From contig JAZRAJ010000067.1 in assembly GCA_045634485.1 (NCBI GenBank), positions 1 to 63,337 of the forward strand: DNA of 63,337 bases, given 5' to 3'. The stretch's first letter is position 1, and every line of letters begins with the position of its first letter. Below the pieces are notes generated by a model. That model was not told where the DNA came from. It saw only the letters and a list, made by a program, of their open reading frames with translations, and ran no database searches. Source of the DNA: Eubacteriales bacterium (GTDB lineage: Bacteria > Bacillota > Clostridia > Oscillospirales > CAG-272). A program made the translations under genes and the position numbers. Below are positions 29,514 to 62,902 of this stretch, piece after piece.

Positions 29514-31718
29514 ATGAAAGCCCTAAAAAAATCAGCAATATTACTACTTACCCTATCTATACTCCTCGGCTCAGTTGCGTGCGGAAAAAAGCTTGATGAT
29601 TCGTATTCCTCCGACTCGGGCGACGAATATTATTCCGACCTTAGCTCAAGCGACGGAAACGGTAATCAGCTTAACGATTCATCAAAGGAAACCATTGAGC
29701 ATATCGAGGGCTCGGGCATAGCATCAAAAACCGACTTCACTCGCTACACGATAATTGCAACGAAAAGCAACGCTCGTGCGCTTGATGCGGCAAACGGTCT
29801 TAGCGATAAGCTTGCCGACAAGGGCTTTTCCTTAGAGGTCAACAAGCGTTCGGTATATGAAATAATCATTGGAAACAACACGGCAAGTGAAACGAGAGAG
29901 GCAATAGATCAGCTCTCAAAATCCGACAAGGATTATCTTATTAAATTCTCGGGAACTAAAATCGTAATCGTTGCCAAAAACGATCTCGTTTTACCCGAGG
30001 CGTGCGATATGTTTTACGAAACCTATATCAAGGATATCAAAAACAAAACCCTTGAGGTTAAGGACGGCACTGCCACTCTCGGTATATCAAAGAACCTTAC
30101 CACGCTTGCCTACGACGGAGCCCTCCAATACGAAATAGTGCTTGGCAACGTTTCATCCGAGGTAAAGACAAGGGCTGCTGAGCTTGCTTCGTTTATAAAA
30201 ACGATGTGCGGTGTTACCTCGGTTAACTCAAGCGCTAAATACGATAAATCCAAAAAGCAGATACTTATAGGCCCTGCGGGCTTTAGCGAAACCTCCTCGG
30301 CAATAAGAAGTCTTGCAGACGATAAGGGCATTATTACCAAGATAGATAACAAAATAATAGTTGCGGGCAAGGACGATGCAACCACTATTGCGGCAATCGA
30401 CTCCTTTACAAGTCTTATAGAAAAGGCTAAGGGCAACAACTCAAAAAAGGGTAGCTATGCGATATCGATTACGAAATCGCTAATAGACACCTATTGCGCA
30501 AGCCTTGATTCTATTCCGAAATTCTCGGGCGCAACCTACTCGGCAACCTACCCCTCGGGCGACGGAATAAAGCAGCTTTACTATACCTCCGCAGATTCAA
30601 GCAAGATAAACGCATACGTTACTCAGCTTGCAAATCTCGGCTACAAAAAGGTTGAGGATAATTCGGTTAACGGCAACCGCTTCGTTACCTGCTACGGTAA
30701 AAACGGAATAGTTCATATCTCGTATCTAAATCACAATAAATCCCTGTCGGTAATTCTCGACTCTCTAAAAAATTCGGTTTACAAGGAATCGGAGCCCACC
30801 TACACCAAGGTAACTAATTCCTCGCTTGCCGTTATGTCGCTTGATTACGTATTAAACGATGAAACGCACAGAAGCGGAATGTCCTATATAATCACGCTTG
30901 AGGACGGAAGATATATTATTATCGACGGTGGATACAGAGATACGAACACAGGCTCAAGCGATGCATATATTATTTACAATTATATGAAAGACCACAATAA
31001 GCGTGCAGATAAAAAAATCATCATAGCCGCTTGGATATTCACGCACGACCACTCAGACCACCACGGTGCATTCTCGGAATTTGCAGGCAACTACTCCTCC
31101 AAGGCGGAAATACAGTATTATATTATGAACTGCGGAGATAAATCCAATTTCACACAAAAGCCAAGCGGTTGGCTTAACGGTGGACTTATCGACCTTATGA
31201 AGTCAAAATTTCCCTCGGCAAAGCTTATAATTCCGCATACGGGACAAAAGCTTACATTCTGTAATACTACCTTTGATATTCTTTCTACTCAAGAAAGCCA
31301 CACACCCAACAAAATGGAATGGGTTAACGATGCGTCAATAATTTTCAGTATGACATCAAATGGCGTAAGAACTCTCTTCCTTGCAGATGCCGAGGCTCAA
31401 ACCACAAAGCTTATTAACAATATGTACGGAAGCACTATAAAGAGTGACATTTTGCAGATAGCGCACCACGGATACAGTGGCGGCTCGGTTGACCTCTACA
31501 AAAAGGTTGATCCGCAGTGGACGATTTGGCCCACCTCTCAATCTGCATTTAACGAGCGAAAGGTTGGCTCGGGTAACGGCAATGCCCAGGCTCAAAATAA
31601 ATGGGCTGCTCAAAACTCAACCTGCTACGTTGCCGACGGTAAAATTGAGATACTTACCTTCATTGGCGGAAGCTCAAAGATATCCGTGTCTACCTATACG
31701 GCAAATTATAATAAATAA
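29514..31718 (+). CDS. Lipoprotein with ComEC/Pce-like MBL-fold hydrolase domain (paralog 1; duplicated N-terminal module)
   Basis: Lipobox SVAC; IIDGG, THDHSDH, NDAS, LFLAD, DILQIAHHG. Confidence 0.88.
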   Translation: MKALKKSAILLLTLSILLGSVACGKKLDDSYSSDSGDEYYSDLSSSDGNGNQLNDSSKETIEHIEGSGIASKTDFTRYTIIATKSNARALDAANGLSDKLADKGFSLEVNKRSVYEIIIGNNTASETREAIDQLSKSDKDYLIKFSGTKIVIVAKNDLVLPEACDMFYETYIKDIKNKTLEVKDGTATLGISKNLTTLAYDGALQYEIVLGNVSSEVKTRAAELASFIKTMCGVTSVNSSAKYDKSKKQILIGPAGFSETSSAIRSLADDKGIITKIDNKIIVAGKDDATTIAAIDSFTSLIEKAKGNNSKKGSYAISITKSLIDTYCASLDSIPKFSGATYSATYPSGDGIKQLYYTSADSSKINAYVTQLANLGYKKVEDNSVNGNRFVTCYGKNGIVHISYLNHNKSLSVILDSLKNSVYKESEPTYTKVTNSSLAVMSLDYVLNDETHRSGMSYIITLEDGRYIIIDGGYRDTNTGSSDAYIIYNYMKDHNKRADKKIIIAAWIFTHDHSDHHGAFSEFAGNYSSKAEIQYYIMNCGDKSNFTQKPSGWLNGGLIDLMKSKFPSAKLIIPHTGQKLTFCNTTFDILSTQESHTPNKMEWVNDASIIFSMTSNGVRTLFLADAEAQTTKLINNMYGSTIKSDILQIAHHGYSGGSVDLYKKVDPQWTIWPTSQSAFNERKVGSGNGNAQAQNKWAAQNSTCYVADGKIEILTFIGGSSKISVSTYTANYNK

Positions 31719-31721
31719 AAC

Positions 31722-31762
31722 ATCCCGCTTTATTATCAAAACGCAAGATAATAAAGCGGGAT
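31722..31762. terminator. Bidirectional intrinsic terminator
   Basis: atcccgctttattatc ... gataataaagcgggat between convergent genes. Confidence 0.8.
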
Positions 31763-31782
31763 TTTCATATTATTTCCAATGC

Positions 31783-33672: not shown

Positions 33673-33678
33673 TTTATA

Positions 33679-35220: not shown

Positions 35221-35267
35221 TTTTTATATACTGTAATCGTAATAAATTATAATAAAAGGAAAAGATT

Positions 35268-40128: not shown

Positions 40129-41940
40129 ATGAAGGCTGCACTAACAAGAGCTATAGCTATACTTTTGTTGCTCTGCGCGTTCCCTCTTGCTCTTTTCTCC
40201 TGTGTAAGTACTGACTCAAATGACGATGGCGTAAACAACGATACGATTACGGACGATTCCTACACCGACGCTACGGATGATACCGAAGCCGCAACCGAAA
40301 CCGATGCGGCAGGTACGATTACGTTATTTAAAAACGGAAAATACGTAGCGCGTGTGGTTCGCTCCGAGTATGCCTCTGAAAACGACAGGCTTGCGTACAA
40401 CGAGTTAAAGTCTGACCTCAAGTCAAAAACCGGTAAGGCGGTAATGACCTCAACCGATTTTGTGGCAGCAGGAACAACGCTTGACGATTCCTCGGCTATA
40501 CTCGTTGGCGAAACCGAATATGCGGAATCAAAGGCGGTTTACGAATCATTAAAAAGAGATACGGCAGTTGCGCAAATAGTAAACAACAAATACGTAATCG
40601 CCTTTTCACACATAGAAGCTCTTGTGAAGCTTTTTGAAAGGCTAAAGGAAAAAATCGCGAATGCAAATGCGGAGGAAATCGTGATAGATTCAAGCTGGAA
40701 CATAACAATAGAGCCCACCGTTGCAAGCAGCATAAAGCTTCCAAGCTTTGCGGGCAAGGCTCTTGGCTCTGCCATTGACCTTGGTCAGGGCTCGTCGCTT
40801 TACATAGTAAATAACGCCTCAATGCAAGGATTTAATGATTATAACGAGGAGCTTGTAAGCCTCGGCTTTGAGCTTTACACACAAAATTCTATCGCAGGTA
40901 ACGAGTATAGAACCTATACCTCCAAAAAGCAGATAGTAAACGTTATCTATCTTAAATACTACAACGAGGTTAGAATTATTGAGGACAACCGTGACACAAT
41001 CGAGCTTCCCGCACTTAAGGTGGACAACGTTTACGAGAAGACCTCTACTCCCTCCTTTACCATGATGGGAATTTCCGATGCGGGCTACCCCGGTGGAATG
41101 AGCTTTATTTTTAAGCTTTCGGACGGTACCTTCTTTATCATTGACGGCGGTATGTGCGCAAACCGTACAGGCTCAAATCAATGTAAGAACGAGCCCTCTA
41201 TTCACAGACTCTTTAAGACTCTTCAGGACCTTGCAGACGACCCCAACAACATAGTTATTTCGGGTTGGCTCATAACACACATCCACAACGACCACGCAGG
41301 TGCGTTTATTGACCTTGGCGAAAATCCCGGATATGCAAGCAGAGTAACCATAAAGCAGGTTATCTACAGTCAGCCCGCAGATTCGGATATGACCGACGGC
41401 AATCAGCCCTACCGTCTTGATTGGATGCCCAACGCTCTTGAAAAGCTTAAGATTACAAAAACGGTAAAGGCACACCCCGGTCAGGTATTCTACTTTGCGG
41501 ATCTTACGCTTACCATACTTGGTACTCACGACCTTGTCAAGCCCGATAAGATAACAAGCCACAACAATGCATCTATCGTTTCTATGGTAGAGTTCGGCGG
41601 AAAGAAGATGCTCTTCCTTGCCGATGCAGAGGGTGCTTCAAACAATAAGCTTGATAAGATTTACGGCGATGAGCTTAACGCCGACATTCTTCAGGTTGCT
41701 CACCACGGCTACAACAACACCGAGGCAGGTGTGGTTTACAACTACGTAACCCCCTCGATAGTTCTTTGGCCTATTCAAACAAGCGACTGGAAGTCGGGCG
41801 CAAACGTATACAACGTTTCCTTTAACAAATCTCATTTTGATAAGGCAGGCATTGCGCACTACGTTGGCGGAGATGCAAACACTACCTTTGAGGACCTTAC
41901 TACATGGATTCCTACAAGGCAGAATTGGAAGCCGCTATAA
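40129..41940 (+). CDS. Lipoprotein MBL-fold hydrolase (paralog 2)
   Basis: Lipobox LFSC; IIDGG, THIHNDH, NNAS, LFLAD, DILQVAHHG; 39 bp after the aldolase. Confidence 0.88.
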   Translation: MKAALTRAIAILLLLCAFPLALFSCVSTDSNDDGVNNDTITDDSYTDATDDTEAATETDAAGTITLFKNGKYVARVVRSEYASENDRLAYNELKSDLKSKTGKAVMTSTDFVAAGTTLDDSSAILVGETEYAESKAVYESLKRDTAVAQIVNNKYVIAFSHIEALVKLFERLKEKIANANAEEIVIDSSWNITIEPTVASSIKLPSFAGKALGSAIDLGQGSSLYIVNNASMQGFNDYNEELVSLGFELYTQNSIAGNEYRTYTSKKQIVNVIYLKYYNEVRIIEDNRDTIELPALKVDNVYEKTSTPSFTMMGISDAGYPGGMSFIFKLSDGTFFIIDGGMCANRTGSNQCKNEPSIHRLFKTLQDLADDPNNIVISGWLITHIHNDHAGAFIDLGENPGYASRVTIKQVIYSQPADSDMTDGNQPYRLDWMPNALEKLKITKTVKAHPGQVFYFADLTLTILGTHDLVKPDKITSHNNASIVSMVEFGGKKMLFLADAEGASNNKLDKIYGDELNADILQVAHHGYNNTEAGVVYNYVTPSIVLWPIQTSDWKSGANVYNVSFNKSHFDKAGIAHYVGGDANTTFEDLTTWIPTRQNWKPL

Positions 41941-45220: not shown

Positions 45221-45295
45221 TGGCACCCGCAACGGGAATCGAACCCATAACTAACCCTTAGGAGGGGCTTATTATATCCATTTAACTATGCAGGC
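45221..45295 (-). tRNA. tRNA-Arg (CCT)
   Basis: Reverse complement GCCTGCATAGTTAAATGGATATAATAAGCCCCTCCTAAGGGTTAGTTATGGGTTCGATTCCCGTTGCGGGTGCCA: anticodon loop CT-CCT-AA, GGTTCGATT T-loop, encoded CCA; upstream TTGAAA-N17-TATAAT. Confidence 0.93.
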
Positions 45296-49072: not shown

Positions 49073-50923
49073 ATGAAAACGAAAAAGCAATTTCAGCTTA
49101 CTGCATTTTTCCTCGCACTCGTTATATCGCTTAGTGCTTTTTCCGGGTGCGCGGGAAAATTTAAAAACGAAGGTCTTGGCGAAAGCGGCTCCGATTCCTC
49201 AATTGCCACCGACGGCGATTATATCGACGATGATTATCTCGAGGAGGATTTAGACGGAGAACCCGGAAAGTACACTCCAACGGTTGACCAAAGCAAATTC
49301 CCCGACGGTGCCTTCCCGATATTCGACGGCTCGGCTTATACAATAAAGGTAGTTGTGTCCGATACGGCAAGCGCAACCGAAAGACAGATTGCCACCAAGC
49401 TTAGAAGCGAGCTTAAGAAAAAGACGAAAACAACGATTTCGCAAAGCACCGATTATCTTAAAAAGAACGAATCCTACGATTCAAGCGCCTACGAGATTCT
49501 CGTTGGAAAAACTAACCACATAGAATCCGACTCGGTTTACAGATCAATCGACTACAACAACTACGGCATAAAAACGATAGGCAACAAAATCGTTTTCCAC
49601 TTTGCAACCATTGACGAGGGCACCGAGCTTGTTTCGCTCTTTATCAATGCACTAAAGAGCAACGAGCAGAAGGCGTTTTGGATAAAGAACTCTATCTTTG
49701 TTTCAGAGATAACCTCCCCCGTGCTTACGGGACTTCCAAAGTACCCCGACTCCTATACAACCACCGATTGCGGAGATAATACCTCTATGGTGGTTGCAAA
49801 AAGCACCTCCCTCTCAAACTTCAACAAGTATTGCGAAACGCTTACCTCAAACGGATACACCGAGTACTCTAAGCGTGAGAATATCGACGGCAACTACTTT
49901 AGAACCTATACTAAGGGCTCAACCGCAGTTACCGCATATTTCTCCAACGGCAGAGGTCAAGCAAGAATTATCGTAGGTCCTATAAAGGATATCCCATCCA
50001 AGGATAAGGACGAAACACCCGAAACAGTTAAGCCCTCGGTTACTATGATAGGACCGAGCGACAACGTTAGCGGAAGCCTTACGATGATATATCAGCTTGC
50101 AAACGGTAAATTTATAATAATCGACGGCGGAATTATTCTTGCCGACAGAATTTACAAGGAGCTTAAGGAGCTTCAGCCCAACGCAACGAAATATACGATT
50201 GCGGGATGGTTTATATCGCATCCGCACAGCGACCACCAGGACGGTATTGAATACTTTATCGAGCAGCACGTACACGAGGTTAACATTGAAAACATTTATT
50301 TCAACTATGCAAAGTCCTCCTACTACGATAACCCCTCGGATAAGGACCACACCAACGAGCGTGAGGGCGCACGTGCTACCAATCTTCGTGAAATTCTTGA
50401 AACAAAGGTTTCCCGCTCAACGAGAATCGTAAAGCCCCACTCGGGTCAGATATACAATTTTGGCTCTGCAACCGTAGAGGTAATTTCAACGGTTGAGGAC
50501 CTCCTTCCCACGCAGATGCCCTACGTAAACGATACGAGCATGGTTTTGCGAATAACAGTTGCAGGACAGTCGACGATGCTTCTTGGCGACGCTTCAAAGA
50601 ATATGAAAAACATTATTCGAAGCATGTACGATTCGCACGTAAAATCCGATATGGTAACGCTTGCGCACCACGGAGTATGGGACTTTAACCCCGAGCTTTA
50701 CAACGAGATAAAGGCCAAGGTGCTCTTCTGGCCCAACAATACGGCAGGCGCTAAGGAGTTTTATAACAAGTCAAGCTCCACCGAGGCAAAGAAATCGATT
50801 GACGCTGCGCTTAAGCACGCAACCGACGTATTCCTTGCTAAGGGCACAGACACAAAGCTTCTGCTCCCATACACTCCCGTTGGAAACAAGAGCAGCTTTA
50901 TAAACAACACCTTTAATAAATAA
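49073..50923 (+). CDS. Lipoprotein MBL-fold hydrolase (paralog 6)
   Basis: Lipobox FSGC; SHPHSDH, MLLGD, DMVTLAHHG; close copy of paralog 5. Confidence 0.88.
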   Translation: MKTKKQFQLTAFFLALVISLSAFSGCAGKFKNEGLGESGSDSSIATDGDYIDDDYLEEDLDGEPGKYTPTVDQSKFPDGAFPIFDGSAYTIKVVVSDTASATERQIATKLRSELKKKTKTTISQSTDYLKKNESYDSSAYEILVGKTNHIESDSVYRSIDYNNYGIKTIGNKIVFHFATIDEGTELVSLFINALKSNEQKAFWIKNSIFVSEITSPVLTGLPKYPDSYTTTDCGDNTSMVVAKSTSLSNFNKYCETLTSNGYTEYSKRENIDGNYFRTYTKGSTAVTAYFSNGRGQARIIVGPIKDIPSKDKDETPETVKPSVTMIGPSDNVSGSLTMIYQLANGKFIIIDGGIILADRIYKELKELQPNATKYTIAGWFISHPHSDHQDGIEYFIEQHVHEVNIENIYFNYAKSSYYDNPSDKDHTNEREGARATNLREILETKVSRSTRIVKPHSGQIYNFGSATVEVISTVEDLLPTQMPYVNDTSMVLRITVAGQSTMLLGDASKNMKNIIRSMYDSHVKSDMVTLAHHGVWDFNPELYNEIKAKVLFWPNNTAGAKEFYNKSSSTEAKKSIDAALKHATDVFLAKGTDTKLLLPYTPVGNKSSFINNTFNK

Positions 50924-50949: not shown

Positions 50950-52779
50950 ATGAATAGCCAATTTAAAATTATAGCGTTACTGCTTGCGCTAATTATGCTT
51001 CTTGGAGCAATTACCGCTTGCAGCAATGCTACTAACGAAAATGATGGCGAGAGTGATAATGACACGGCATCGGGAACATCAACCGATGCCGAAGTCGTAA
51101 GTAAAGCAGATCTCTCACTCTTCCCCGAAAATGCGTTTCCAATTTTTGACGGCACTGCTTACGCCACAAAGGTTGTAACGTCCGATACCGCATCATCAGA
51201 CGAGCGTCAGGTTGCGGCAAGCCTTAGAAGCGCACTTAAATCACAAACAAAGGTTACGCTTAACTCAAGCACCGACTTTTTAAACAAAGGCGAAGCCTAT
51301 GATGTAAGCGCTTACGAAATCCTCATAGGCGAAACCAAGCACGAGGAAGCACAAAGCGTATTCGGCTCGCTCTCCTTTAATAGCTACGGCATAAAGCTTA
51401 TCGGCAACAAAATAATTTTCTATTTTGACACGGCTGATGAGGGTAAGGAGCTTGTTTCGCTCTTTATGTCGTCGATACAGGCCACCGACAAGGGTGCATT
51501 GTGGGTTCCAAACACGATAAACGTTGCAAAAAACTCCACGCTTCAGCTTATCGACGTGCCGAAATATCCCGCAAAAACACTTACTAACGTTGATTGCGCA
51601 GACGATACCTCAATGGTAATTGCAAGCAACACAAGCCTTGCGGTATTTAACGAGTATTGCACAACGCTTACGGCAAACGGATTTGCGGAATACTCCAAGC
51701 GTGAGAATGTCGACGGCAACTACTTTATGACCTACACCAAGGATCAAAAGGCTCTCACGATTTACTACTCCGAGGGTACGAAGCAGACGAGAATTATTTC
51801 GGGTCCGCTTAAGGATATCCCCTCAAAGGAGATAGACCAAACACCCGAAACCTACGAGCCCTCGCTTACCTTCGTTGCGCAGAGCGAAAGCACCGGTAAT
51901 GGTCTTGCACTTGTTTATCAGCTTCCCAACGGCAAATTTATAGTGGTTGACGGTGGATATTATTTAAGCGACAGAATATACAAGGAGCTTAGAGAAATCC
52001 AACCCGACGCAAATAAGCTTACGATTGCTGCTTGGTTCGTATCGCATCCGCACATCGACCATCAGGAGGCATTGGAGAACTTTATAAGACAGCACAGTAA
52101 CGAGGTTGATATCGAGAGCATCTTCTTTAACTACGTAGATGCGGAATATTACGATAACCTCACCGCCTCCGATCAGCAAACCGAGGATGCAAAGGAAGGA
52201 AAATCTGTAAACAAGTTGCGAAATCTCGTTGATAAATACCTCTCCCGCGACACCATGATAATCAAGCCCCATACAGGACAGGTTTATAGCTTTGGTAAGT
52301 CGGCTGAGGTTGAAATAATTTGGACCATTGAGGACTACCTCCCCACCGCACTTGACAGAATTAACACCTCAAGCATGGTAATTCGCGTAACGGTGGCAGG
52401 AACCTCAACTATGGTTCTCGGCGATGCAACGGGCGTTTCCAAGCAGATAATGCTTAAGATGTATAACGAGCATCTAAAATCCGATATCGTAACGCTTGCG
52501 CACCACGGAATTTGGGTTGACACTCCCGAGATGTATACTGCAATAGCGGCGTCTGTCCTCCTTTGGCCATCTAATACAGCATCGGCAAGAGAATTCTACT
52601 ATGCTCTTGAGCCTTCTAAGACAACCTTTTCTCAGCCTGCAATTAAGGAGGCGCTAAATAAAGCGACCGACGTTTATCTTGCAAAGAACATAGATAATAA
52701 ATTCAGTCTTCCCTATACGCATATTAATAATAAGGAAGAGTTTATGAACGTTACTCTTTATCCACCTAGCGAAAATTAA
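50950..52779 (+). CDS. Lipoprotein MBL-fold hydrolase (paralog 7)
   Basis: Lipobox ITAC; SHPHIDH, MVLGD, DIVTLAHHG. Confidence 0.88.
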   Translation: MNSQFKIIALLLALIMLLGAITACSNATNENDGESDNDTASGTSTDAEVVSKADLSLFPENAFPIFDGTAYATKVVTSDTASSDERQVAASLRSALKSQTKVTLNSSTDFLNKGEAYDVSAYEILIGETKHEEAQSVFGSLSFNSYGIKLIGNKIIFYFDTADEGKELVSLFMSSIQATDKGALWVPNTINVAKNSTLQLIDVPKYPAKTLTNVDCADDTSMVIASNTSLAVFNEYCTTLTANGFAEYSKRENVDGNYFMTYTKDQKALTIYYSEGTKQTRIISGPLKDIPSKEIDQTPETYEPSLTFVAQSESTGNGLALVYQLPNGKFIVVDGGYYLSDRIYKELREIQPDANKLTIAAWFVSHPHIDHQEALENFIRQHSNEVDIESIFFNYVDAEYYDNLTASDQQTEDAKEGKSVNKLRNLVDKYLSRDTMIIKPHTGQVYSFGKSAEVEIIWTIEDYLPTALDRINTSSMVIRVTVAGTSTMVLGDATGVSKQIMLKMYNEHLKSDIVTLAHHGIWVDTPEMYTAIAASVLLWPSNTASAREFYYALEPSKTTFSQPAIKEALNKATDVYLAKNIDNKFSLPYTHINNKEEFMNVTLYPPSEN

Positions 52780-53054: not shown

Positions 53055-53335
53055 ATGGCTTATATGCTTTATAGCGGGCGACCACGTTCATCCGCCTGCA
53101 TCAAATTTATTAAAACAATATTCAATAGAACAATATTTGCGTAAATCTTCCTTTTATCCACAAAAAAGAACGCTATATGTTTTCTGTGTGAAGAAACCCT
53201 GTTTTCGGCTTTATTTTGCACAAAAAGGCTTATTCTTTTTTATCTATTCCGCTAATTGAAAAGAAAGGCACATTATGGTAAAATATACTATGGAAGAAAC
53301 TTCGTAAATAAGAATAAATACAAGGAGATATGCTT

Positions 53336-55300
53336 ATGAAAACAAAGTTAATTTTTATTAAGTCAATTTCTCTGTTATTAGTCTTTTTAATGCTATTTTC
53401 CGCACTTATCTCCTGCGCAGGCGGGCTTGAAGGTAGCGGCGAAAGCTCCGACGTAACAGAGGACGGCACTACGTTGGATGGCGACGATGCAAACGGCGAC
53501 GATGCAAACGGCGACGGTGCGCAAAGCGCAGACGGCTCTATCGTTATCTACGAGGATGGCGTTCAGCTTGGTAACGTTGTTCGTCCCGATACGCCCAGCG
53601 ATATTGAAAAAACCATATATAACGATATCCGTGAGCTTATAAAGAAGAAAATGGGTGAGATGCCCTCTTTCTCATCCGACTTTGATGCTCAGGACGGTCC
53701 CGCAATTCTCATAGGAGATACAAAATGCAAGGAGTCCACAAGCGTAAAGCTTAAGGAGGGTCAGGCAAAGGCTACCGTGGTTGGCAACAAGTACGTTATT
53801 AAATGGACCACTGAGGCATCTGCTATCGAGCTTTTTGCAAAGTTTGAGGAAACCTTTAAAAAGAACGTAAAGAACAAAAATATGACCATTACCTCAAAGT
53901 GGAACATAACGGTTACCGTTGAGGAGGTTAAGTTTGACGAAAACGGTCTTGCATCCTCTATTACACTTCCCAATATTTCAAGCACGGGACTTAAATGGAA
54001 CACAAACGGACGCGACTCCGGCCACGGCTCAACGATCTATATTGCAAACAATGCAAATTCCACACACTTTGCAAAGTACACTACGGCTCTTAAGACTGCA
54101 GGCTTTACGCCCTACGCAACTAACAAGCTTCACACCTGTGAGTTTGCAACCTTCGTTACCAAGGATCAGATAGTTCACGTAATGTTCTTTGCTCCCCAGA
54201 ATGTAATTAAGGTTACTGTTGACCCCAGAAGCACGTTCGGTCTTCCCGGTATCAAGGGCGAAAACGATACTCCCAACACCAACAATACCCCCACCCAGTT
54301 CGTTCAGCTTGGAATGAGTCAGGTTTCGGGAGAAGCAAACGGAATGGGCTACATCGTTAAGCTTCCCAACGGCAAGTTCATAGTTGTTGACGGTGGATTT
54401 GCGTACGACAGTGGCGGAGGCGGCGGCTCTGCAACGTTCCTCATAAATACTATGAAAAAGATGCAGGGTAACAATAACAAGCCTGTAATTGCGGCATTTA
54501 TCATAACTCACATTCACACCGACCACGCAGGCGGATTTATGGGTATAGCAAACAAGCATAAAAACGACGTAATCATTGAAAAGCTCGTTTATAACCAGCC
54601 AAGTGATGCGCAGATGAATTCCGTTAGCAATATGAAAGGTCGTATAAATTGGGTTCCCAATGCAATAAACACGCTTAAAAAAGCAGGTAGCTTACAAACT
54701 GTAGTTAAGGCGCATCCCGGAATGCAGCTTCACTATACAGGTCTTACCATAACCATTATGGGCTCTATTGACGTAATTGAAAATTCAGACCACAAGAAGA
54801 TGGAAAACGGTAATAACGCCTCTGTTGTATGTATGTTCGACATGTACGGCAAAAAGGTTCTTATCACAGGTGATGCTGAGCCACTTGAAAGTAGAGCTAT
54901 TCGCGATATTTACGGTGGTATCGGCAATACAAATTCCGTACTCAAGGCAGATTTCACTCAGACTCCTCACCACGGCTACGGAAATACTAATACCGACTAT
55001 AAGAGCGGAAATGACCAGAACGCTCTTAACGTTATGGCAAGTGGTGGTGTTACCGCGGCAGGACAGAGTAAGACATACGCACTTGTCCCCGTTGCTCTTT
55101 GGTCGGGTTCTGCCACAGGAGGATACCTTGACGACTCTCGCTCCAAGGGTTCAATGCAAATATTCCCTGCGAATATGCGTTTGGTTGCTGCCGATAAGAA
55201 TATGACCATTACGTTCAACACAAACGGAACGTACACAATAGACAAGGCAGAATATAATCATAACGGTCACAAGTTCTGGGTTGGTACTTGGAAAACCTAA
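53336..55300 (+). CDS. Lipoprotein MBL-fold hydrolase (paralog 8)
   Basis: Lipobox LISC; VVDGG, THIHTDH, LITGD, DFTQTPHHG; 15-bp tandem repeat (GDDAN) in the linker. Confidence 0.88.
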   Translation: MKTKLIFIKSISLLLVFLMLFSALISCAGGLEGSGESSDVTEDGTTLDGDDANGDDANGDGAQSADGSIVIYEDGVQLGNVVRPDTPSDIEKTIYNDIRELIKKKMGEMPSFSSDFDAQDGPAILIGDTKCKESTSVKLKEGQAKATVVGNKYVIKWTTEASAIELFAKFEETFKKNVKNKNMTITSKWNITVTVEEVKFDENGLASSITLPNISSTGLKWNTNGRDSGHGSTIYIANNANSTHFAKYTTALKTAGFTPYATNKLHTCEFATFVTKDQIVHVMFFAPQNVIKVTVDPRSTFGLPGIKGENDTPNTNNTPTQFVQLGMSQVSGEANGMGYIVKLPNGKFIVVDGGFAYDSGGGGGSATFLINTMKKMQGNNNKPVIAAFIITHIHTDHAGGFMGIANKHKNDVIIEKLVYNQPSDAQMNSVSNMKGRINWVPNAINTLKKAGSLQTVVKAHPGMQLHYTGLTITIMGSIDVIENSDHKKMENGNNASVVCMFDMYGKKVLITGDAEPLESRAIRDIYGGIGNTNSVLKADFTQTPHHGYGNTNTDYKSGNDQNALNVMASGGVTAAGQSKTYALVPVALWSGSATGGYLDDSRSKGSMQIFPANMRLVAADKNMTITFNTNGTYTIDKAEYNHNGHKFWVGTWKT

Positions 55301-55704: not shown

Positions 55705-57753
55705 ATGAAAATTAAAGTACATTCATTAAAACGAATATTAGCAGTATTGCTTATTCTTACAACAATCTGCTCAGTATTTGCATCCTGCGCAGGTGATATC
55801 GGACTTGAAAGCGACTCCAACGGTAGCGACTCCGAATATGCAACCGATGCAAACGGAAATGCTATCAACCCAGACGGCTCCGACGATGTCGAAAGCGCCA
55901 ATGGGCTTATCCAGTTGTTTGCAAACGGCGAGTACACCGCAAGGGTTATCCGCAGTGACACGGCAAGCGCTACTGATAAGGAGGCTTACACTAAAATAAG
56001 AGAGCTTCTTAAAAAGTACACCGGTGTAAATCCCCCCATAGAGGATGACTTTGTTGCAAAGGGCGAGGAAAAGTACGACGGCCCCGCTATTCTTATTGGT
56101 AAAACCAACTATAGCGAGTCTACAAAGGCTAACTCAAAGCTTGGCGAAAATCAAGCAACCGCTACGATTTCGGGCAACAAATACGTTATTGCATTCTCCA
56201 CTCTCGAGGCGTTTGAAAAATTGGCAACAAAATTTAACACTATCCTCAAAAAGTCAGACAAAAACAACATAATAATCGACTCTAAGTGGAAAATTGACGA
56301 GAAGATAACCGGCGAAACCTTTAGCGAGGTTGGACTCATTAAAAAATACGAGAACATCCTCTCCTTGGTTCAAAAGGGTAACGATAACTTAAAATTGGAT
56401 TCAACAGGCTCTGGTCAGGGTTCATTAACAATTTTCAACGTTGAATCATCTGCTACAAAGACAAACTTTGACACCGTTTGCAAAAACCTTGTAGACAACG
56501 GATTAAAGAAATACACAACCAACTCTATTGGCAACAACCAATTTGCAACCTACGTAACCGAGCAGCAGATTGTTCACGTAATGTTCTTCCCCACTCAGTC
56601 TGTTAAGAAAAAAGAGAAGGATAACAAGGATAGGACTGTTTACAATTCCGTTGGTAAGGAGGGTGTGCTTAGAGTTACCGTTGACCAGCGTGGAGTTGGC
56701 ACAGACGGCAAGTTCTCTCTCCCCGGACTTTCGGGCGAAAACAAGTACACAAAAACCACCGAGTCTAAGATGATTGTTTGCGACATCGGTAACGCAGACT
56801 GGCCCGGCGGAATGTGCATTATCTACAAGCTTGCGGACGGAAGATTCTTCATCGTTGACGCAGGTATCGGCGGAACTAAGTCCGACGGACGTGGATTTAT
56901 TGGCTCATCCTCAAGCTGGATTTACGAAACCCTTGCAAAGCATGCGGCAGACCCCAAGAACATTCAGGTTGCAGCTTGGCTTATAACTCACCCCCACTCC
57001 GACCACGCAGGCGGACTTTACGATATGGCGCTTGGCTACTACGGCTCAAAGAGCGGAGCAAAGCACTGCGTAATGCCTAAGGAGATAAAGAAGTATATTA
57101 AGATAGATACTCTTATTTACAACGCTCCCGACAATCTCCCCGACTGTAATAGAGAGGGTTGGATTCCCGAAATAATCAAGCAGTTCAACATTCAAAAGGT
57201 AGTTAAGGCTCACGCAGGTCAGATATTCTACTATGCAGACCTTAAGTTCACCGTTTTCGGCTCGCTTGATATTATGATTGAGAACAAGGCTAAGAGCGGA
57301 GATAGCAACGATTTCTCGCTTGCAATACAGGTTGCATTTAACAACAAGACCGCACTTCTCCTCGGCGATAGCGATACTATTCCCAACGCAGAGCTTGCGC
57401 CTATCTACAAGAACTCGCTTAAGTCGGATATCCTTCAGCTTGCTCACCACGGCTACGGCGACACTGGCGACCATAGCGTTAACTCCTACTGTAATCCCTC
57501 TTGGGTTCTTTGGGTGGTTTCTAACGGTGACTTGCGTTCTAACTATACCATTAACGTGAATACGTCAATTGGAAGCCTTAAGAACGTTAAGAACATTAAG
57601 CCCGGAACCGACAACCTCGTTTACGATAGCAACTGGAATTTGACAAGAATGACACGTAACGATATGGTAAACGCAATCAAGGGTTGTGACGGCTCCACTC
57701 ACGGAGCAAGCAGCTGCGGACAAAAGCCGAGCTTTAAGAACAAATACACCTAA
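55705..57753 (+). CDS. Lipoprotein MBL-fold hydrolase (paralog 9)
   Basis: Lipobox FASC; IVDAG, THPHSDH, LLLGD, DILQLAHHG. Confidence 0.88.
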   Translation: MKIKVHSLKRILAVLLILTTICSVFASCAGDIGLESDSNGSDSEYATDANGNAINPDGSDDVESANGLIQLFANGEYTARVIRSDTASATDKEAYTKIRELLKKYTGVNPPIEDDFVAKGEEKYDGPAILIGKTNYSESTKANSKLGENQATATISGNKYVIAFSTLEAFEKLATKFNTILKKSDKNNIIIDSKWKIDEKITGETFSEVGLIKKYENILSLVQKGNDNLKLDSTGSGQGSLTIFNVESSATKTNFDTVCKNLVDNGLKKYTTNSIGNNQFATYVTEQQIVHVMFFPTQSVKKKEKDNKDRTVYNSVGKEGVLRVTVDQRGVGTDGKFSLPGLSGENKYTKTTESKMIVCDIGNADWPGGMCIIYKLADGRFFIVDAGIGGTKSDGRGFIGSSSSWIYETLAKHAADPKNIQVAAWLITHPHSDHAGGLYDMALGYYGSKSGAKHCVMPKEIKKYIKIDTLIYNAPDNLPDCNREGWIPEIIKQFNIQKVVKAHAGQIFYYADLKFTVFGSLDIMIENKAKSGDSNDFSLAIQVAFNNKTALLLGDSDTIPNAELAPIYKNSLKSDILQLAHHGYGDTGDHSVNSYCNPSWVLWVVSNGDLRSNYTINVNTSIGSLKNVKNIKPGTDNLVYDSNWNLTRMTRNDMVNAIKGCDGSTHGASSCGQKPSFKNKYT

Positions 57754-57787
57754 TTAAATCAAGGTTATTAATTAAAACGTAATATTT

Positions 57788-57825
57788 ACCGCCGCCTCGA
57801 ACGCAATTTCGGGGCGGCGGTTTTT
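57788..57825 (+). terminator. Intrinsic terminator
   Basis: accgccgcc ... ggcggcggt plus T tract. Confidence 0.8.
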
Positions 57826-57863
57826 ATGTGAAATGTAGAATTTTAATAAACGTTTTTTGTGTT

Positions 57864-58360: not shown

Positions 58361-58390
58361 CGTGTCAAGATTAATAAACATATACCTCAC

Positions 58391-58534
58391 AATACCGCTT
58401 TTTCTTTGGCAGGAGAGGCGCAAAGAAAAAGCTTGGCAAAAAGAAAACGCCGTTTTTATGGGCTCTGCCCAAACCCGCAAGTTTTTTGAAAAAACTTGAC
58501 TAAAAACTTTCCTGTATGGGTGCGGTGCAAACAC
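58391..58534 (-). repeat. Dispersed repeat, inverted 3'-half copy
   Basis: Reverse complement of the core from gtgtgtttgcaccgcacc to gccaaagaaaaagcggtatt. Confidence 0.88.
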
Positions 58535-58683
58535 ACCTTCCCTTTCCTCTCATAGCGTCATCTCCAATTATGCACAATTCGGCGCGGGCTTTTTTGTTTA
58601 AAAAGTATATTGTTTATATTATATCTTTATGGTATAATTATTATAATAGGATAATTGTGTAATTATATTTTTTGGGAGGACAT

Positions 58684-60732
58684 ATGAAAGCATATTCAAA
58701 AAGATTTTTAGCGCTTTTTTTAATGCTTGCCACTGTATGCTCCGTTCTCGTAGGTTGTGTAGACCTTAACAACGGCAGCATCTTTACCGATTCGGGTACC
58801 GGCACAAACGCTTCCACCGATGCTACAAGCGGTGGCACTAACAACGGCACCGACGAAACCAATGGCAACACCGAAACCGAGTCCGTGCTTAAGGAGGGCG
58901 ATATTCCGATATTCTTAAACGGTGCATATTCGGCTAAGATAATCTGCTCCGACACGGCAACCGATTTCGAAAAGGATATATACGATCAGATAAGAGAGCT
59001 TTTTAGAAAGAAGACCGGCGTAACCCCCGAAAGCACCACCGACTACGTTGCATCGGGCTCCGAAAGGTACGACGGACCTGCTATTCTTGTTGGCGAAACA
59101 AGCTACACCGAGTCCAAAAAAGCATACGAAAAGCTTGAAAACGAGCAAGCAACCGCTACCGTTTCGGGCAACAAGTACGTTATTGCTATTTCCTCCGAGG
59201 ATGCTTGGACCAACTTTTTAACCGCATTTAAGAAAAATCTTGCAAACGAAGCAACCAAGACTCAGGTTATCGTTAACTCCAAGTGGGATATTACCGTAAC
59301 CTCGGGCTACGTTGTTTCGGGTAATGAAACCTTTGACGAGAGCGGTCTTAAGAGCTCGGTTACGATTTCTAACATTCCCAATCTCGGAACAGGCTACAGC
59401 TCGGGTCAAAGCTCCAAAACCTATATAAAGAGCAGCGCAACAAAGGCAACCTTTGAAACCCTTTGCGCTGACATGGAGTCTGCAGGCTTAAAGAAGTACA
59501 CCACCAATTCTATTGGTAACAACCTTTTTGCAACCTATTTAACGGAAACTCAGATAGTTCACGTTATGTACTTCCCTAACAAGAAGCAAATCAGAACCGC
59601 AGTTGATAAGCGTGGCGAGGGTATGAACGGATTTGCCCTCACAGGTCTTTCGGGCGAGAACAGATATATGCCCTCCGAAGACTCCAAGATGATTCTTTGC
59701 GACGTTTCCAACGCAGACTGGGGCGGCGGAATGTGCTTTATCTTCAAGCTTGCGGACGGCAGATTCTTCATTGTCGACTCGGGTATCGGCGGATACATCC
59801 ACGACGGTCGTAACGGCAGAGGCTCATCCTCGGGTTGGATATACGCAACTCTTGCAAAGCACGCGGCAGACCCCAAGAACATTGAGGTTGCGGCTTGGCT
59901 TATAACTCACGTTCACTCCGACCACGCAGGCGGTCTTTACGATATGGCTACGGGCTATTACGGCTACAACGGCTCTAAGCACACCGTAATGCCTAAGGAG
60001 ATTAAGAACTACATCAAGATAGACAAAATCATCTACAACTCCCCCGACAAGTTCCCCGACTCCGACAGAACCACTTGGATGAAGAAGATAATTGAAACCT
60101 TCAAGGTTAAAAACGTTATCAAGGCTCATCCCGGTCAGGTGCTTTACCTTGCCGACCTTACCTTGACAATCTACGGCTCGCTCGACCTTATGATAGAAAA
60201 GAAGGATGAATCGAGCGACCTCAACGACTTCTCGATTATGTCAAGAGCAGAATTTAACGGCAAGACGATACTACTCACGGGAGATAGCGACAAGATTCCT
60301 AACCCCGTTGTGGCGGCTATCTACAAGGACGACTTAAAGTCGGATATCCTTCAGCTTTCTCACCACGGCTACGGCGACGTAGGCGACCACGATATCAACT
60401 CCTACTGTAACCCCGAAATAGTTCTCTGGGCTTGCTCTAAGGATGATCAGAGAACCAACTGCAACATCAACGTAAACAAGGAGCTTACCGCTCTTAGCAC
60501 GTCTAACTTTACGCTTAGATACTCAAACAGTGCGGGAACAACGGTTTACGGCGGTCTTAAGACCGATCTTAACTTCCGTCCCGGTATGGGAAATCTTATA
60601 TTCGACAGTAATTGGGAAACATCCTCGATGTCACGCTCAACCTTACTCTCGGAAATTCCCACCTGCGATGGAACGCATTGCGGAAGCTCAAGCTGCACAA
60701 AGAAGAGTAGCGGAAACTACTTCGTTGAGTAA
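58684..60732 (+). CDS. Lipoprotein MBL-fold hydrolase (paralog 10)
   Basis: ATG 58684 after GGAGG; lipobox LVGC; IVDSG, THVHSDH, LLTGD, DILQLSHHG. Confidence 0.88.
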   Translation: MKAYSKRFLALFLMLATVCSVLVGCVDLNNGSIFTDSGTGTNASTDATSGGTNNGTDETNGNTETESVLKEGDIPIFLNGAYSAKIICSDTATDFEKDIYDQIRELFRKKTGVTPESTTDYVASGSERYDGPAILVGETSYTESKKAYEKLENEQATATVSGNKYVIAISSEDAWTNFLTAFKKNLANEATKTQVIVNSKWDITVTSGYVVSGNETFDESGLKSSVTISNIPNLGTGYSSGQSSKTYIKSSATKATFETLCADMESAGLKKYTTNSIGNNLFATYLTETQIVHVMYFPNKKQIRTAVDKRGEGMNGFALTGLSGENRYMPSEDSKMILCDVSNADWGGGMCFIFKLADGRFFIVDSGIGGYIHDGRNGRGSSSGWIYATLAKHAADPKNIEVAAWLITHVHSDHAGGLYDMATGYYGYNGSKHTVMPKEIKNYIKIDKIIYNSPDKFPDSDRTTWMKKIIETFKVKNVIKAHPGQVLYLADLTLTIYGSLDLMIEKKDESSDLNDFSIMSRAEFNGKTILLTGDSDKIPNPVVAAIYKDDLKSDILQLSHHGYGDVGDHDINSYCNPEIVLWACSKDDQRTNCNINVNKELTALSTSNFTLRYSNSAGTTVYGGLKTDLNFRPGMGNLIFDSNWETSSMSRSTLLSEIPTCDGTHCGSSSCTKKSSGNYFVE

Positions 60733-60753
60733 TAATTAATTATAATAAAATTT

Positions 60754-60791
60754 AGCGATTTACTGTGCCTCGGCACAGTAAATCGCTTTTT
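60754..60791 (+). terminator. Intrinsic terminator
   Basis: agcgatttactgtgcc-tc-ggcacagtaaatcgct plus T tract. Confidence 0.85.
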
Positions 60792-60937
60792 AATTTTCAT
60801 TATGCACAATAAGATTTTTAAAAATTCGGCTAAATGCATATTGAAAAAATGGCAAATTTGTGCTATAATTATATGGGATATTATGTCATTTTTACTTTTT
60901 TCACAATATATTTATCAAATTTAGGAGGATAAAGGAT

Positions 60938-62902
60938 ATGAGATCTATTTGGATAAAGCTTATATCAATTTTAATCGTTGCGGCAACGTTAGTAACTGCG
61001 TTTGCTTCCTGTACATCAAACGACGTCGGCGACGAATCAAGCTCAGAATCAAGCACCGAGGCAAACGGCTCAAGTGAAACCGAGCCTATAATCGACCCCG
61101 AGGGCGTTATTACAATTTTTGCAAACGGTGCGTACAACGCAAGGGTTATTCGCCCCGAAACACCGTCAAATGACGAAAAGGACGTTTACAATCAAGTAAG
61201 AACGCTTCTTAAAAAGCGTACAAATATCAGCCCCGCTATTAACACCGACTTCGCCGCGGCAGGCACAGAGCGTTACGACGGCCCCGCTATTCTCGTTGGC
61301 GAAACCGACTACGATGAATCCAAGGCAGCTTACAAAAAGCTTAGCGTTGGCGAGGCTACTATAACCATTAGCGGCAACAAGTTGGTTCTTGGCTTTACAA
61401 ATGCCGATTCAATTACCTCACTTCTCGATGCGTTCGAAACCAATCTTACCAAAAACGCATCTAAAAGAGAGATTAAGGTAGACAGCAAGTGGGAGAAAAC
61501 CATTAAGCTTCAGTATTATACCTCGGGTAATGAAACCTTTGACGCAACGGGTCTTATTTCAAAGGCAGATATCCCCGGAAACCTCGGTCAAGGTCACGAT
61601 GCAGGTCAGGGCTCAACCACCTACATAAAGACCGGCGCAACCAAATCCACCTTTGAGGACGCTTGCGCAGCCGTTGAGGCAAACGGTTTTAGAAAATACA
61701 CCACCAATTCAATTGGCGATAATCTTTTTGCAACCTATGTAACTCAAACACAGATACTCCACTTTATGTACTTTCCCAACAACGGCGAGCTTAGAACCGC
61801 AGTTGACAAGCGTGGAACGGGCAAAAACGGATTTACCCTTCCCGGACTTTCGGGCGACAACACCTACGCAAAGCTTACAAACTCGGTAATGACTCTCGTT
61901 GACATAGAGAACGCTGCATGGCCCGGCGGTATGTGCCTTATCTTCAAGCTCTGCGACGGACGGTTCGTGGTTGTTGACAGTGGCGTTGGCGGACGTAATA
62001 ACGACGGCTCCTCGTCGGGTTGGGTTTACCAATCGCTTGCAAAGCACGCCGACGACCCCAAGAATATACGAGTTGCGGCTTGGGTGTTAACTCACATTCA
62101 CTCCGACCACGCAGGCGGACTTGTTGATATGGCTCGCGGAACCTATGAAACAACTCTCGTAGCGCACGGCGAAAAATCAGTATATCACAACGTAATGCCT
62201 AAAGAGGTTAGACAGTGGATAAAAATTGATACCCTTATTTACAACCGTCCCGCTAACAACGTTGACGGCAGAAACGGTTGGATGGACGAGATAATCGATG
62301 CATTCAATGTTAAAAACGTTATCAAGGCTCACCCCGGTCAGGTATTCTACTACGGAAATTGTAAGTTCACAATGTATGGCTCGCTTGACCTCGTTGTTGA
62401 AAAGAAGATAAAAAACCACAATGACGAATCCTTGTCTATGATGTTTGAATTTAACAACAAAAAATTCTTAGTTCTCGGAGATGTTTACCCCGAAAACATT
62501 AGATATTTAGCAACAGCTTACAAGAATGAGTTTAAAGCCGACATCGTTCAGCTTATTCACCACGGATATGATCACGGATATGATGATAATGATAAAAATA
62601 TCTCTGATATGATTTATCAATACGTTAACCCAACCATGGTTTTGTGGCCTGTTGCGGGATATGAAAAGGATCAGTGCGGTCTTGTAAATAAATCTATAAA
62701 TTCTGCTTTCAAGAATATTCCAAGCAATATGCAGTTTACACCCCGAGGACAAAACATCGACTTTGACGAAAACTGGCAGGTTGCAGAAAAATACAGCCTT
62801 ATGAGTGAGATTCCCTATTGCGATTGCAACCATTGTAAGAATGATAAGGTTATTGGACCGATAAAGAGTAGCGGAAACAAGCAGACCGCAGATAATACAT
62901 AA
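60938..62902 (+). CDS. Lipoprotein MBL-fold hydrolase (paralog 11)
   Basis: Lipobox FASC; VVDSG, THIHSDH, LVLGD, DIVQLIHHG. Confidence 0.88.
   Translation: MRSIWIKLISILIVAATLVTAFASCTSNDVGDESSSESSTEANGSSETEPIIDPEGVITIFANGAYNARVIRPETPSNDEKDVYNQVRTLLKKRTNISPAINTDFAAAGTERYDGPAILVGETDYDESKAAYKKLSVGEATITISGNKLVLGFTNADSITSLLDAFETNLTKNASKREIKVDSKWEKTIKLQYYTSGNETFDATGLISKADIPGNLGQGHDAGQGSTTYIKTGATKSTFEDACAAVEANGFRKYTTNSIGDNLFATYVTQTQILHFMYFPNNGELRTAVDKRGTGKNGFTLPGLSGDNTYAKLTNSVMTLVDIENAAWPGGMCLIFKLCDGRFVVVDSGVGGRNNDGSSSGWVYQSLAKHADDPKNIRVAAWVLTHIHSDHAGGLVDMARGTYETTLVAHGEKSVYHNVMPKEVRQWIKIDTLIYNRPANNVDGRNGWMDEIIDAFNVKNVIKAHPGQVFYYGNCKFTMYGSLDLVVEKKIKNHNDESLSMMFEFNNKKFLVLGDVYPENIRYLATAYKNEFKADIVQLIHHGYDHGYDDNDKNISDMIYQYVNPTMVLWPVAGYEKDQCGLVNKSINSAFKNIPSNMQFTPRGQNIDFDENWQVAEKYSLMSEIPYCDCNHCKNDKVIGPIKSSGNKQTADNT

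Follow-up and report, generated by a model that had tools for sequence, protein, structure and literature searches.

The Pce/ComEC branch of the metallo-beta-lactamase (MBL) superfamily has very few characterised members, each with a single job: wall remodelling, DNA uptake or phage defence. Pce of Streptococcus pneumoniae strips phosphocholine from teichoic acid (PMC7785958). The MBL domain of ComEC is a Mn2+-dependent phosphodiesterase and nuclease which cleaves bis-p-nitrophenyl phosphate (bis-pNPP) but not p-nitrophenyl phosphate (pNPP), its monoesterase activity being negligible (PMC8579336). Pce has been named the closest structure to this ComEC domain, and a bridging-hydroxide mechanism has been described (PMC12455585). 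According to the same paper, the oligonucleotide/oligosaccharide-binding (OB) fold of ComEC supplies DNA binding, and H725 and S728 of its HHGS motif contribute to substrate handling, S728A lowering nuclease activity about 3-fold. The ComEC site was modelled as strongly positive (PMC5031224). Here we describe 11 genes in the window, by which we mean the whole 63,337-nucleotide stretch that was analysed (contig C67, JAZRAJ010000067.1, of a 1.84-Mb genome assembly of an Eubacteriales bacterium, 81% complete). They encode predicted surface lipoproteins whose MBL domains, judged by predicted structure and sequence profiles, belong to this branch, and in them the branch takes the form of a large, modular and repeatedly amplified family of putative surface enzymes.

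Architecture and active site of the family

The family open reading frames (ORFs) all lie on the plus strand (starting at 29514, 40129, 43007, 45361, 47228, 49073, 50950, 53330, 55705, 58672 and 60938), nine of them between 43.0 and 62.9 kb, are 600-734 aa long and contain no internal stops (0/11), just as the sequence-only reading had described them. Ribosome-binding sites point to likely starts at 45379 (rather than the TTG at 45361), 47246 (rather than 47228) and 58684 (rather than the TTG at 58672). One common layout had been proposed as well, and a lipobox, a tether, an N-terminal module (N-module), a middle module and an MBL domain are indeed present in 11/11, except that the protein from 29514 carries two N-modules. 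A lipobox Cys, called by a simple pattern, stands behind a basic-hydrophobic signal in every copy (Cys22-32) and is followed by a tether of 26-50 aa, 56-82% of which are S/T/D/E/N/G. Pairwise local identities range from 21.5 to 69.5%, in agreement with a diversified cell-surface set, and a profile built from the 11 copies scores each of them at E ≤ 1e-190, far beyond chance. Pfam at E ≤ 0.01 finds Lactamase_B in only 6/11; most copies are therefore poorly annotated.

In the alignment of the window copies (A1; residues numbered after the 47228 ORF) 24 columns are invariant, among them C32, D342-x-G344, H374-x-H376-x-D378-H379, N479, D499 and H525-H526-G527. The motif set said to be kept in all copies holds for DxG, HxHxDH, the Asn, the Asp and HHG, with the expected NxxS reading NxxT in 43007, and HHG is followed by Y, T, V or I throughout. 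The EILVG motif was drawn too narrowly, being literal in 3/11 and otherwise reading EILIG, AILVG, AILIG, AVLLG or QILIG.

A wider core-profile alignment (A3) comprises 109 units, namely the 11 of the window and 98 of 99 non-redundant units, from 138 full-length candidates. The eight-residue set H,H,D,H,N,D,H,H is complete in 101/109, a count that is partly circular, as loci L031-L089 were found by D[GS]G and HHG patterns and rows were picked with window-copy profiles; a ComEC-like His-to-Asp change is seen in 7/109, and 1/109 is degenerate. With Hx[HD]xDH, the motif-III Asn, the bridging Asp and HH as the ligand set, it is complete in 11/11 window copies and 108/109 aligned units. Position 528, directly after HHG, varies (Y 49, L 11, I 10, T 8, V 7 and G 6 of 109), and five active-site loops span 3-25, 4-21, 11-37, 10-24 and 8-34 residues across A3, a variation which fits a shared chemistry with different specificities. 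The MBL domain is acidic in 10/11 copies (net charge -3 to -12; 53330 is the sole basic copy), and the middle module is net basic in 7/11.

The units with HxDxDH, the ComEC-type motif II, belong to L024, L025 (genome G002) and L077, six of the seven falling in one clade of a single genome. From these residues, a switch of metal or substrate is possible.

Predicted structure of the modules

Folding and Foldseek searches of the modules, which had been suggested as a check, led to Pce and ComEC for the MBL domain and to a GH115-type domain for the N-module. An AlphaFold2 model of the 47228 ORF computed on A1 (mean predicted local distance difference test score, pLDDT, 79.6) consists of a disordered tether and three folded units. 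For the MBL unit the best structure matches are Pce (2bib, Z 23.7, rmsd 3.1, 258 aligned, 15% identity; 1wra, Z 23.6) and the ComEC domain (9ic4, Z 22.7), with the next structure at Z 16.2, and Foldseek puts the same Pce and ComEC structures first (ranks 1-4 are of the Pce/ComEC branch). Profile searches of PDB sequences gave only Pce and ComEC entries at E < 1e-5, the best sequence match of the core profile being ComEC 9vc6 (E 1.3e-11), and the NCBIfam ComEC model PRK11539 is matched by 10/11 copies, all far below the cut-off range. Aligned to the family, Pce presents HxHxDH, Asn at motif III, GD and HHH, which is the same ligand set; the Asn in Pce is here taken from the alignment, and PMC8579336 words the motif-III comparison differently. 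Predicted fold and profiles alike place the MBL domains in the Pce/ComEC branch, where the motifs had first suggested they belong.

Weak matches also occur elsewhere in the superfamily. Class B beta-lactamase core models match 8/11 copies (NF012229, best E 1.2e-5; the first member scores 14.9 bits where the cut-off is 100), 6A-MBL and Avs1a match weakly, and PADLOC finds LmuA in 10/11 over part of the domain and RTasMBL in 6/11. These partial matches are put down to the common fold; in the structure searches B1/B3 beta-lactamases come well down the ranking (B3 at Z 10.8-11.4), no defence partner lies among the scanned neighbours, and the proteins are predicted to be exported. Inert adhesins would be hard to square with near-invariant catalytic residues, and misassembly with the synteny and bridging contigs described below. 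That the genes represent beta-lactamases, anti-phage effectors, inert adhesins or an assembly artefact is, on this evidence, very improbable.

MBL-fold sulfatases exist (families S3 and S4, PMC5066984), and the proteins could be metal-dependent hydrolases which act on glycans or metabolites at ester bonds without phosphate, for instance in sulfate esters, carboxylic esters or lactones. Arylsulfatase 8gyg reaches Z 16.1 (13% identity, sequence E 0.22; SdsA1 is not among the matches listed), NCBIfam lactonase models match weakly (YtnP 4/11, AidB 3/11), some relatives adjoin glycosidases or esterases, and the genome gave no formylglycine-sulfatase match. Such structures, however, lie about 7 Z units below Pce and ComEC, and the motif-III Asn and the HH pair agree with the phosphodiesterase branch, so that we regard hydrolysis of this kind as unlikely.

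The N-module resembles the N-terminal alpha/beta domain of glycoside hydrolase (GH) family 115 (4zmh, Z 11.8; 7pxq, Z 11.2), with weak Pfam matches to GH67N and GH20b. The middle module was folded alone on a third alignment (A2, 130 rows: the query and 129 of 137 candidates, one with a stop, five long or near-duplicate and two others having been left out) at pLDDT 87.6, and is predicted to form one helix on a curved antiparallel sheet. Its best structure matches in VIA-align (PA1624, SciW, DcrB and LppA, Z 7.3-8.9) are at the level of a common arrangement, and no function is transferable from LppA, DcrB or PA1624. DUF6591 weakly matches 41/130 members (best E 7.7e-5), and no paper on 'DUF6591' was found in the literature. 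There was no clear match to the middle module in Pfam, PDB sequences, Foldseek (none at E ≤ 0.001) or the Atlas, and a profile search of longer proteins returned family members only. The unit of middle module and MBL domain has no counterpart in solved structures, Pfam or NCBIfam, so that among solved structures and curated families the full layout is, as first stated, that of no described system; the literature search, which had subscription papers and supplements outside its reach, found no description of the family.

The array in related genomes

In the congener G008 the order of the array is preserved: 10 family genes stand there, with the sugar cluster, nucleotidyltransferase gene and rRNA-methylase gene of the window around them. 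Nine of the ten are 67-78% identical to the positional window copy, one is extra (36%), and a single gene stands where the window has the pair 47246/49073. The same layout precedes the same rRNA-methylase gene in G010 (9 family genes) and in G012 (6, as far as the contig end). Contigs of independent gut DNA runs span the junctions 42986/43007; 45379/47246, 49057/49073 and 50923/50950 (run X4); and 60732/60938 (run X1); the run X1 contig also spans 55300/55705 with about 170 bp replaced, which makes six bridged junctions. The gaps with repeats or a tRNA (44809/45379, 52779/53330 and 57753/58684) are unbridged by any listed contig piece. An assembly artefact, the caveat raised with the sequence-only reading, is ruled out by the synteny in three congeners together with the bridging contigs, and the selection described next argues in the same direction.

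For ten orthologue pairs between the window and G008, ratios of nonsynonymous to synonymous substitution (dN/dS, Nei-Gojobori) were 0.095-0.18, with dS values of 0.8-2.7 that are partly saturated. The comparison values were 0.012-0.049 for five sugar-cluster genes and a TypA-like GTPase, and 0.10 for the nucleotidyltransferase. By these ratios each family copy is kept under purifying selection. In a FastTree phylogeny of the 109 core units, midpoint-rooted and without a Pce or ComEC outgroup, the window copies form three deep clades, A (43007-50950), B (40129 and 53330-60938) and C (29514), and most of them cluster with their positional orthologues. Arrays of other lineages (L047, L066, G002, G003, G011) form clades of their own; amplification therefore occurred repeatedly. 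The 49073 gene, 69% identical to 47246, appears from the comparison with the single gene at that place in G008 to be the youngest duplicate. The 29514 gene has positional orthologues in G008 and G010 (identity 58-62%), and the 40129 gene starts 39 bp past the aldolase gene of the sugar-catabolism cluster, a linkage kept only in close relatives.

Metatranscriptome contigs (run X12, one study) overlap at least six copies in part (40129, 43007, 47246, 49073, 53330 and 55705). As assembled contigs only, with level and strand unreadable and DNA carry-over possible, they give a weak hint that several copies are expressed. The repeat-rich gaps which dominate the DNA runs were nearly empty in X12 in one scan, and one repeat bin was deep in another.

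Range of the family

Loci L001-L089 hold 176 module-bearing ORFs. The middle module stands directly before the MBL domain in 165 of them, five have the MBL domain alone, five N-modules alone, and one is cut at the locus end. N-modules occur in 0, 1 or 2 copies per family protein, and signal-less forms of about 400 aa exist, often at an array end (one in the host genome, C121). Across these ORFs the constant core is the middle module plus MBL domain, with lipoprotein anchor and N-module optional. In the host genome 16 family genes encode 17 core units, of which one is degenerate, and an N-module is present in 20 ORFs; those of the 20 without an MBL domain carry alkaline phosphatase, EEP, DUF6528, serine-hydrolase (PF00144) or unassigned domains. 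A loose pattern marks 106 ORFs of this genome as lipoprotein-like, some of them falsely.

The A3 core profile found the family in 86/201 genomes and 50/97 genera of the host's family at E ≤ 1e-25, in 24/201 genomes in the order, and, at E ≤ 1e-30, in 1/400 other genomes of the phylum, there with the MBL part only; copy numbers are floors, scoring having been limited to 9 and 4 candidates per genome. Atlas matches are all Bacillota where a taxon is recorded, and arrays of 4-7 family genes occur in other genera. The battery that had been called lineage-specific is confined largely to the host's lineage, but not to the host genome; judging by these sequences the expansion belongs to the lineage, with independent arrays in other genera. 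Named records holding relatives are uncultured Clostridia metagenome-assembled genomes from ruminant hindgut and human gut, and the DNA runs containing the stretch are animal gut metagenomes, mostly bovine.

Some relatives depart from the usual size. Very long members of 1399-1976 aa (L027:1230-7157 in G008, L181, and L156:11713-15909) have large unannotated N-terminal regions before the core. In the host genome, L092:7409-11128 (minus strand, contig C108) encodes 1240 aa which comprise a signal peptide, two middle-plus-MBL units (the first degenerate) and, at residues 35-102, a strongly eukaryote-like ubiquitin domain (PF00240, E 1e-24); the adjoining gene (L092:11153-14755, minus strand) combines a ubiquitin-like with an EEP domain.

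Proposed function

Judged by what is characterised in the branch, these proteins probably hydrolyse phosphodiesters of one kind or another. With moderate confidence we propose that they act as surface phosphodiesterases which scavenge outside phospho-decorated polymers or small diesters by means of paralog-specific active-site loops. Candidate substrates are the teichoic acids and phosphoglycans of other microbes and phospholipid head groups, each copy probably being tuned differently. Besides the match to the branch and the purifying selection on deeply diverged copies, it speaks for this proposal that the N-module also carries alkaline phosphatase (L095, L020) and EEP (L062) domains, and that in three relatives (L161-L163) the core is fused to a ConA-like lectin domain.

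In such a mechanism the protein would be exported and lipidated at the lipobox Cys. The disordered acidic tether and one or two N-modules, predicted to fold like GH20 domain 2, would hold the enzyme off the membrane, and the middle module, invariably linked to the MBL domain, may support it structurally or offer a platform for substrate binding. Two metals coordinated by HxHxDH, the Asn, the bridging Asp and the second His of HH would, as in Pce and ComEC, activate a hydroxide for attack on phosphorus, the first His presumably contacting the substrate, and the five divergent loops around the site could set specificity. Freed sugars, polyols or head groups might then feed carbon metabolism rather than phosphate supply. 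No PstS match was found in the host genome, which argues against phosphate starvation as the driver, and the lack of any LicD (PF04991), TagF/TagB (PF04464) or LtaS/sulfatase (PF00884) match favours an outside substrate; DUF4838 was not matched either. These absences, like those of sulfatases above and of CutC below, are read from the 81%-complete assembly.

The missing LicD, TagF/TagB and LtaS/sulfatase matches also speak against a remodelling of the organism's own phospho-decorated envelope, as by Pce in pneumococcus, which might for example alter phage or host recognition. Pce, the nearest among solved structures, works on the wall of its own cell, the proteins are predicted to be membrane-anchored, and a few relatives adjoin CDP-alcohol phosphatidyltransferase or GtrA genes. 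The family is nevertheless patchy (86/201 genomes), widely variable in copy number and without a conserved envelope-synthesis partner, and we consider a role on the own envelope quite improbable.

Nucleic acids would be the target if the proteins were surface nucleases or nucleotide phosphodiesterases which act on outside DNA, RNA or oligonucleotides for nucleoside salvage, with the middle module in the substrate-gathering role of the ComEC OB fold. ComEC is level with Pce by fold (Z 22.7 versus 23.7) and is the best core-profile match, ComEC and the defence MBLs are DNases, and HxDxDH recurs in 7/109 relatives. The genome moreover has other secreted nucleases, a upp/DeoC/phosphorylase/mutase cluster and a ComEC of its own without MBL motifs, and the middle module is basic in most window copies. 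Leaning away from DNA, the Ser of HHG-Ser is replaced, 10/11 MBL domains are acidic, no OB or other DNA-binding domain is fused, and long variable loops flank the site; for a non-specific nuclease it would also be hard to see why selection should maintain 16 diverged copies in an assembly of 1.8 Mb. Taken together, a nuclease role seems possible but doubtful.

Several points weigh against the scavenging of phospho-decorated polymers. Two of the three characterised branch members are DNases (ComEC and the trypsin-activated defence MBL), and the latter did not cleave p-nitrophenyl-phosphocholine (bioRxiv 10.1101/2025.09.03.673762). Whole-domain net charge reflects the surface around the site only roughly, the activity is read across from the branch, the count of complete sites is partly circular, as mentioned, and the genome absences rest on an incomplete assembly. 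No CutC match was found in the host genome, so choline use is not supported, and many secreted nucleases and a nucleoside-salvage cluster are present. The context is mixed, most scanned neighbours being housekeeping genes: GDPD genes lie beside or near the family in only three loci (L039, L134, L136) and glycosidases (rhamnosidase-like, fucosidase, GH20 and GH65 genes) in about six. A functional link to the upstream sugar cluster (32524-40089) was rejected, a family gene being found in 0/12 regions from other genera, so that the adjacency is positional. No conserved partner gene emerged from the neighbours of relatives that were scanned (83 of 97, and 42 of 51 on the same strand). Teichoic acids, phosphoglycans and nucleic acids are not decisively separated as substrates by any result, and gene context gives no substrate.

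More tentatively, the middle-plus-MBL unit may represent an undescribed lineage-defining family that serves, in a large group of uncultured hindgut Clostridia, to remove the phosphodiester decorations of other microbes' envelopes (teichoic acids, phosphoglycans), with substrate-specific subfamilies as in glycoside hydrolases. If so, these organisms would stand out as recyclers of bacterial necromass, and the family would offer a toolbox of selective 'teichoicases'. The 16 genes take up about 30 kb, or 1.5-2% of a small assembly, and the family is present in half the genera sampled from an abundant, uncultured gut family; an investment of this size points to a main feeding strategy. The 11 window copies, predicted to be soluble, intact and differing mainly in active-site loops, could yield enzymes for phospho-decorated glycopolymers.

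Gene order and neighbouring genes

The coordinates of the family genes and of two further features within the array are collected in Table 1. The array is interrupted by the nucleotidyltransferase gene, a tRNA-Arg gene and copies of a genome-wide repeat; the tRNA-Arg was examined as an integration site for the array and no sign of this was found. Four clade A genes (45379-52779), spaced by -23, 15 and 26 bp, likely form an operon. Between clade B genes the gaps are wider and contain terminator-like hairpins and promoter-like sites, although overall neither promoter-like sites (38 versus 31.9 +/- 6.3 expected) nor terminator-like hairpins (29 versus 22.9 +/- 5.0) exceed chance. The last three genes (55705-62902, clade B) end in short C-terminal tails with paired Cys/His, CDG..H..S..C or CDC.HC, which possibly form a small disulfide- or metal-bound knot.

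Table 1. Positions of the family genes and of other features of the array (N, N-module; M, middle module; MBL, metallo-beta-lactamase domain).
Feature	Clade	Length (aa)	Position	Strand	Modules	Motifs and remarks
Family gene	C	734	29514..31718	+	lipobox, tether, two N 29670-30077 and 30087-30491, M 30507-30782, MBL 30813-31676	THDHSDH, NDAS, HHGY
Family gene	B	603	40129..41940	+	N 40306-40713, M 40732-41013, MBL 41044-41901	THIHNDH
Nucleotidyltransferase-like gene, not a family member			42087..42986	+		between 40129 and 43007, 20 bp before 43007; same position in G008, G010, G012
Family gene	A	600	43007..44809	+	N 43217-43627, M 43643-43915, MBL 43949-44761	SHPHPDH, NWST, HHGT; terminator-like hairpin 44820-44851
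tRNA-Arg(CCT), inside array			45221..45295	-		
Family gene	A		45379..47268	+	N 45529-45939, M 45955-46230, MBL 46258-47076	SHTHGDH; low-complexity C-terminal tail
Family gene	A		47246..49057	+	N 47429-47839, M 47855-48127, MBL 48155-49012	SHPHNDH; copy used for folding
Family gene	A	616	49073..50923	+	N 49301-49711, M 49727-49999, MBL 50027-50875	SHPHSDH
Family gene	A	609	50950..52779	+	N 51124-51534, M 51550-51825, MBL 51853-52719	SHPHIDH
Family gene	B	656	53330..55300	+	N 53528-53917, M 53960-54250, MBL 54281-55258	THIHTDH; promoter-like 53256-53284, terminator-like 55319-55344
Family gene	B	682	55705..57753	+	N 55897-56304, M 56350-56727, MBL 56758-57636	THPHSDH; Cys-containing C-tail; promoter-like 55590-55618, terminator-like 57788-57821
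Family gene	B		58684..60732	+	N 58891-59301, M 59359-59646, MBL 59677-60576	THVHSDH; terminator-like 60754-60787
Family gene	B	654	60938..62902	+	N 61097-61507, M 61556-61846, MBL 61877-62767	THIHSDH; promoter-like 60841-60869; followed by rRNA adenine dimethylase gene

The upstream sugar cluster comprises six genes for a Gfo/Idh/MocA oxidoreductase, a divergent class-III aminotransferase, an FGGY kinase, an amidohydrolase, an AraA-like isomerase and a class II aldolase, with no equivalog-level assignment. Orthologues of the aminotransferase occur in 28/201 genomes of the host's family, and the cluster may represent an undescribed catabolic pathway for an amino sugar or amino polyol.

A ~300-bp hairpin-rich intergenic repeat lies in the window at 26576-26883, 28916-29352 and 52780-53084, and on the minus strand at 55373-55456 and 58275-58539. 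It gave 211 nhmmer hits on 75/122 contigs (65 of at least 250 bp, 58 near contig ends) and no Rfam match, and is not specific to the array. The repeat is missing at 55347-55517 in run X1, which suggests a mobile element resembling miniature inverted-repeat transposable elements (MITE) or repetitive extragenic palindromes (REP). A second, lower-copy intergenic repeat at 57927-58149 has up to 18 genome hits and is very deep in metagenome contigs.

The host genome is rich, for its small size, in secreted nucleases and phosphoesterases (L095, L099, L101, L092, L097): two Endonuclea_NS_2 lipoproteins, an Endonuclease_1, an SNase, a ribonuclease, EEP proteins and an alkaline phosphatase, in scans of which one covered 65 of 194 ORFs from selected regions. 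The nucleoside-salvage cluster is made up of upp/DeoC/phosphorylase/mutase/DHH/SurE genes. One GDPD and six EEP matches were counted in the genome, and a Pit-type transporter is encoded in the window. The host ComEC (L110:901-2970, minus strand, contig C93) has DUF4131 and Competence domains, and its C-terminal part is without MBL metal motifs.

Comparison with known systems

Tandem arrays of surface-enzyme paralogs are ordinary and the catalytic fold is known, the mechanism being carried over from the wider family. Cwp12 of C. difficile is not a related surface MBL, as PMC5842191 gives it Big_3 and CAP domains. The trypsin-activated defence MBL DNases (Hachiman-MBL, Avs1a and LmuA-MBL; bioRxiv 10.1101/2025.09.03.673762) share the MBL branch and inserted loops near the site; they are cytoplasmic effectors with sensor and protease partners, whereas the family consists of predicted exported lipoproteins next to which no such neighbour was seen. 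The nearest matches to the middle module, the helix-and-sheet folds of LppA, DcrB, PA1624 and BamC (Z 8.9, 8.1, 8.1 and 7.3) together with DUF6591, reach common-arrangement scores only. The N-module resembles the N-terminal alpha/beta domain of GH115, GH67 and GH20 enzymes, but here it is mobile (0-2 copies) and stands before MBL, alkaline phosphatase, EEP, DUF6528 and other domains, not in a glycosidase.

Pce/CbpE of S. pneumoniae (2bib, 1wra) is the best fold match and shares HxHxDH, Asn, GD and HH, and both it and the family combine a surface-located catalytic domain with accessory modules. The family has no choline-binding repeats (Pfam, 0/11), its chain being accounted for by tether, N-module, middle module and MBL domain, and is anchored by a lipobox; the N- and middle modules are its own and not those of Pce, and the insert of about 20 residues which Pce has after DxG is missing in most copies. 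Pce's choline pocket has an aromatic residue near the site. In the family the loop at this position is hypervariable, with a Trp near its end in 6/11 copies and none in 5/11. There are 16 family genes in the genome, and no LicD match in the host.

With the BLACT domain of ComEC (9ic4, 9vc6) the family shares the fold, the motif-III Asn, GD and HHG, and both face the outside of the membrane. In contrast to ComEC, none of the 11 copies has a Competence channel (PF03772) or OB domain, motif II reads HxHxDH (101/109) instead of HxDxDH (7/109 relatives), the Ser after HHG is absent, and a separate ComEC is encoded on contig C93. As the defining modules of Pce and ComEC are not those of the window proteins, we place the family within their branch, as neither Pce nor ComEC.

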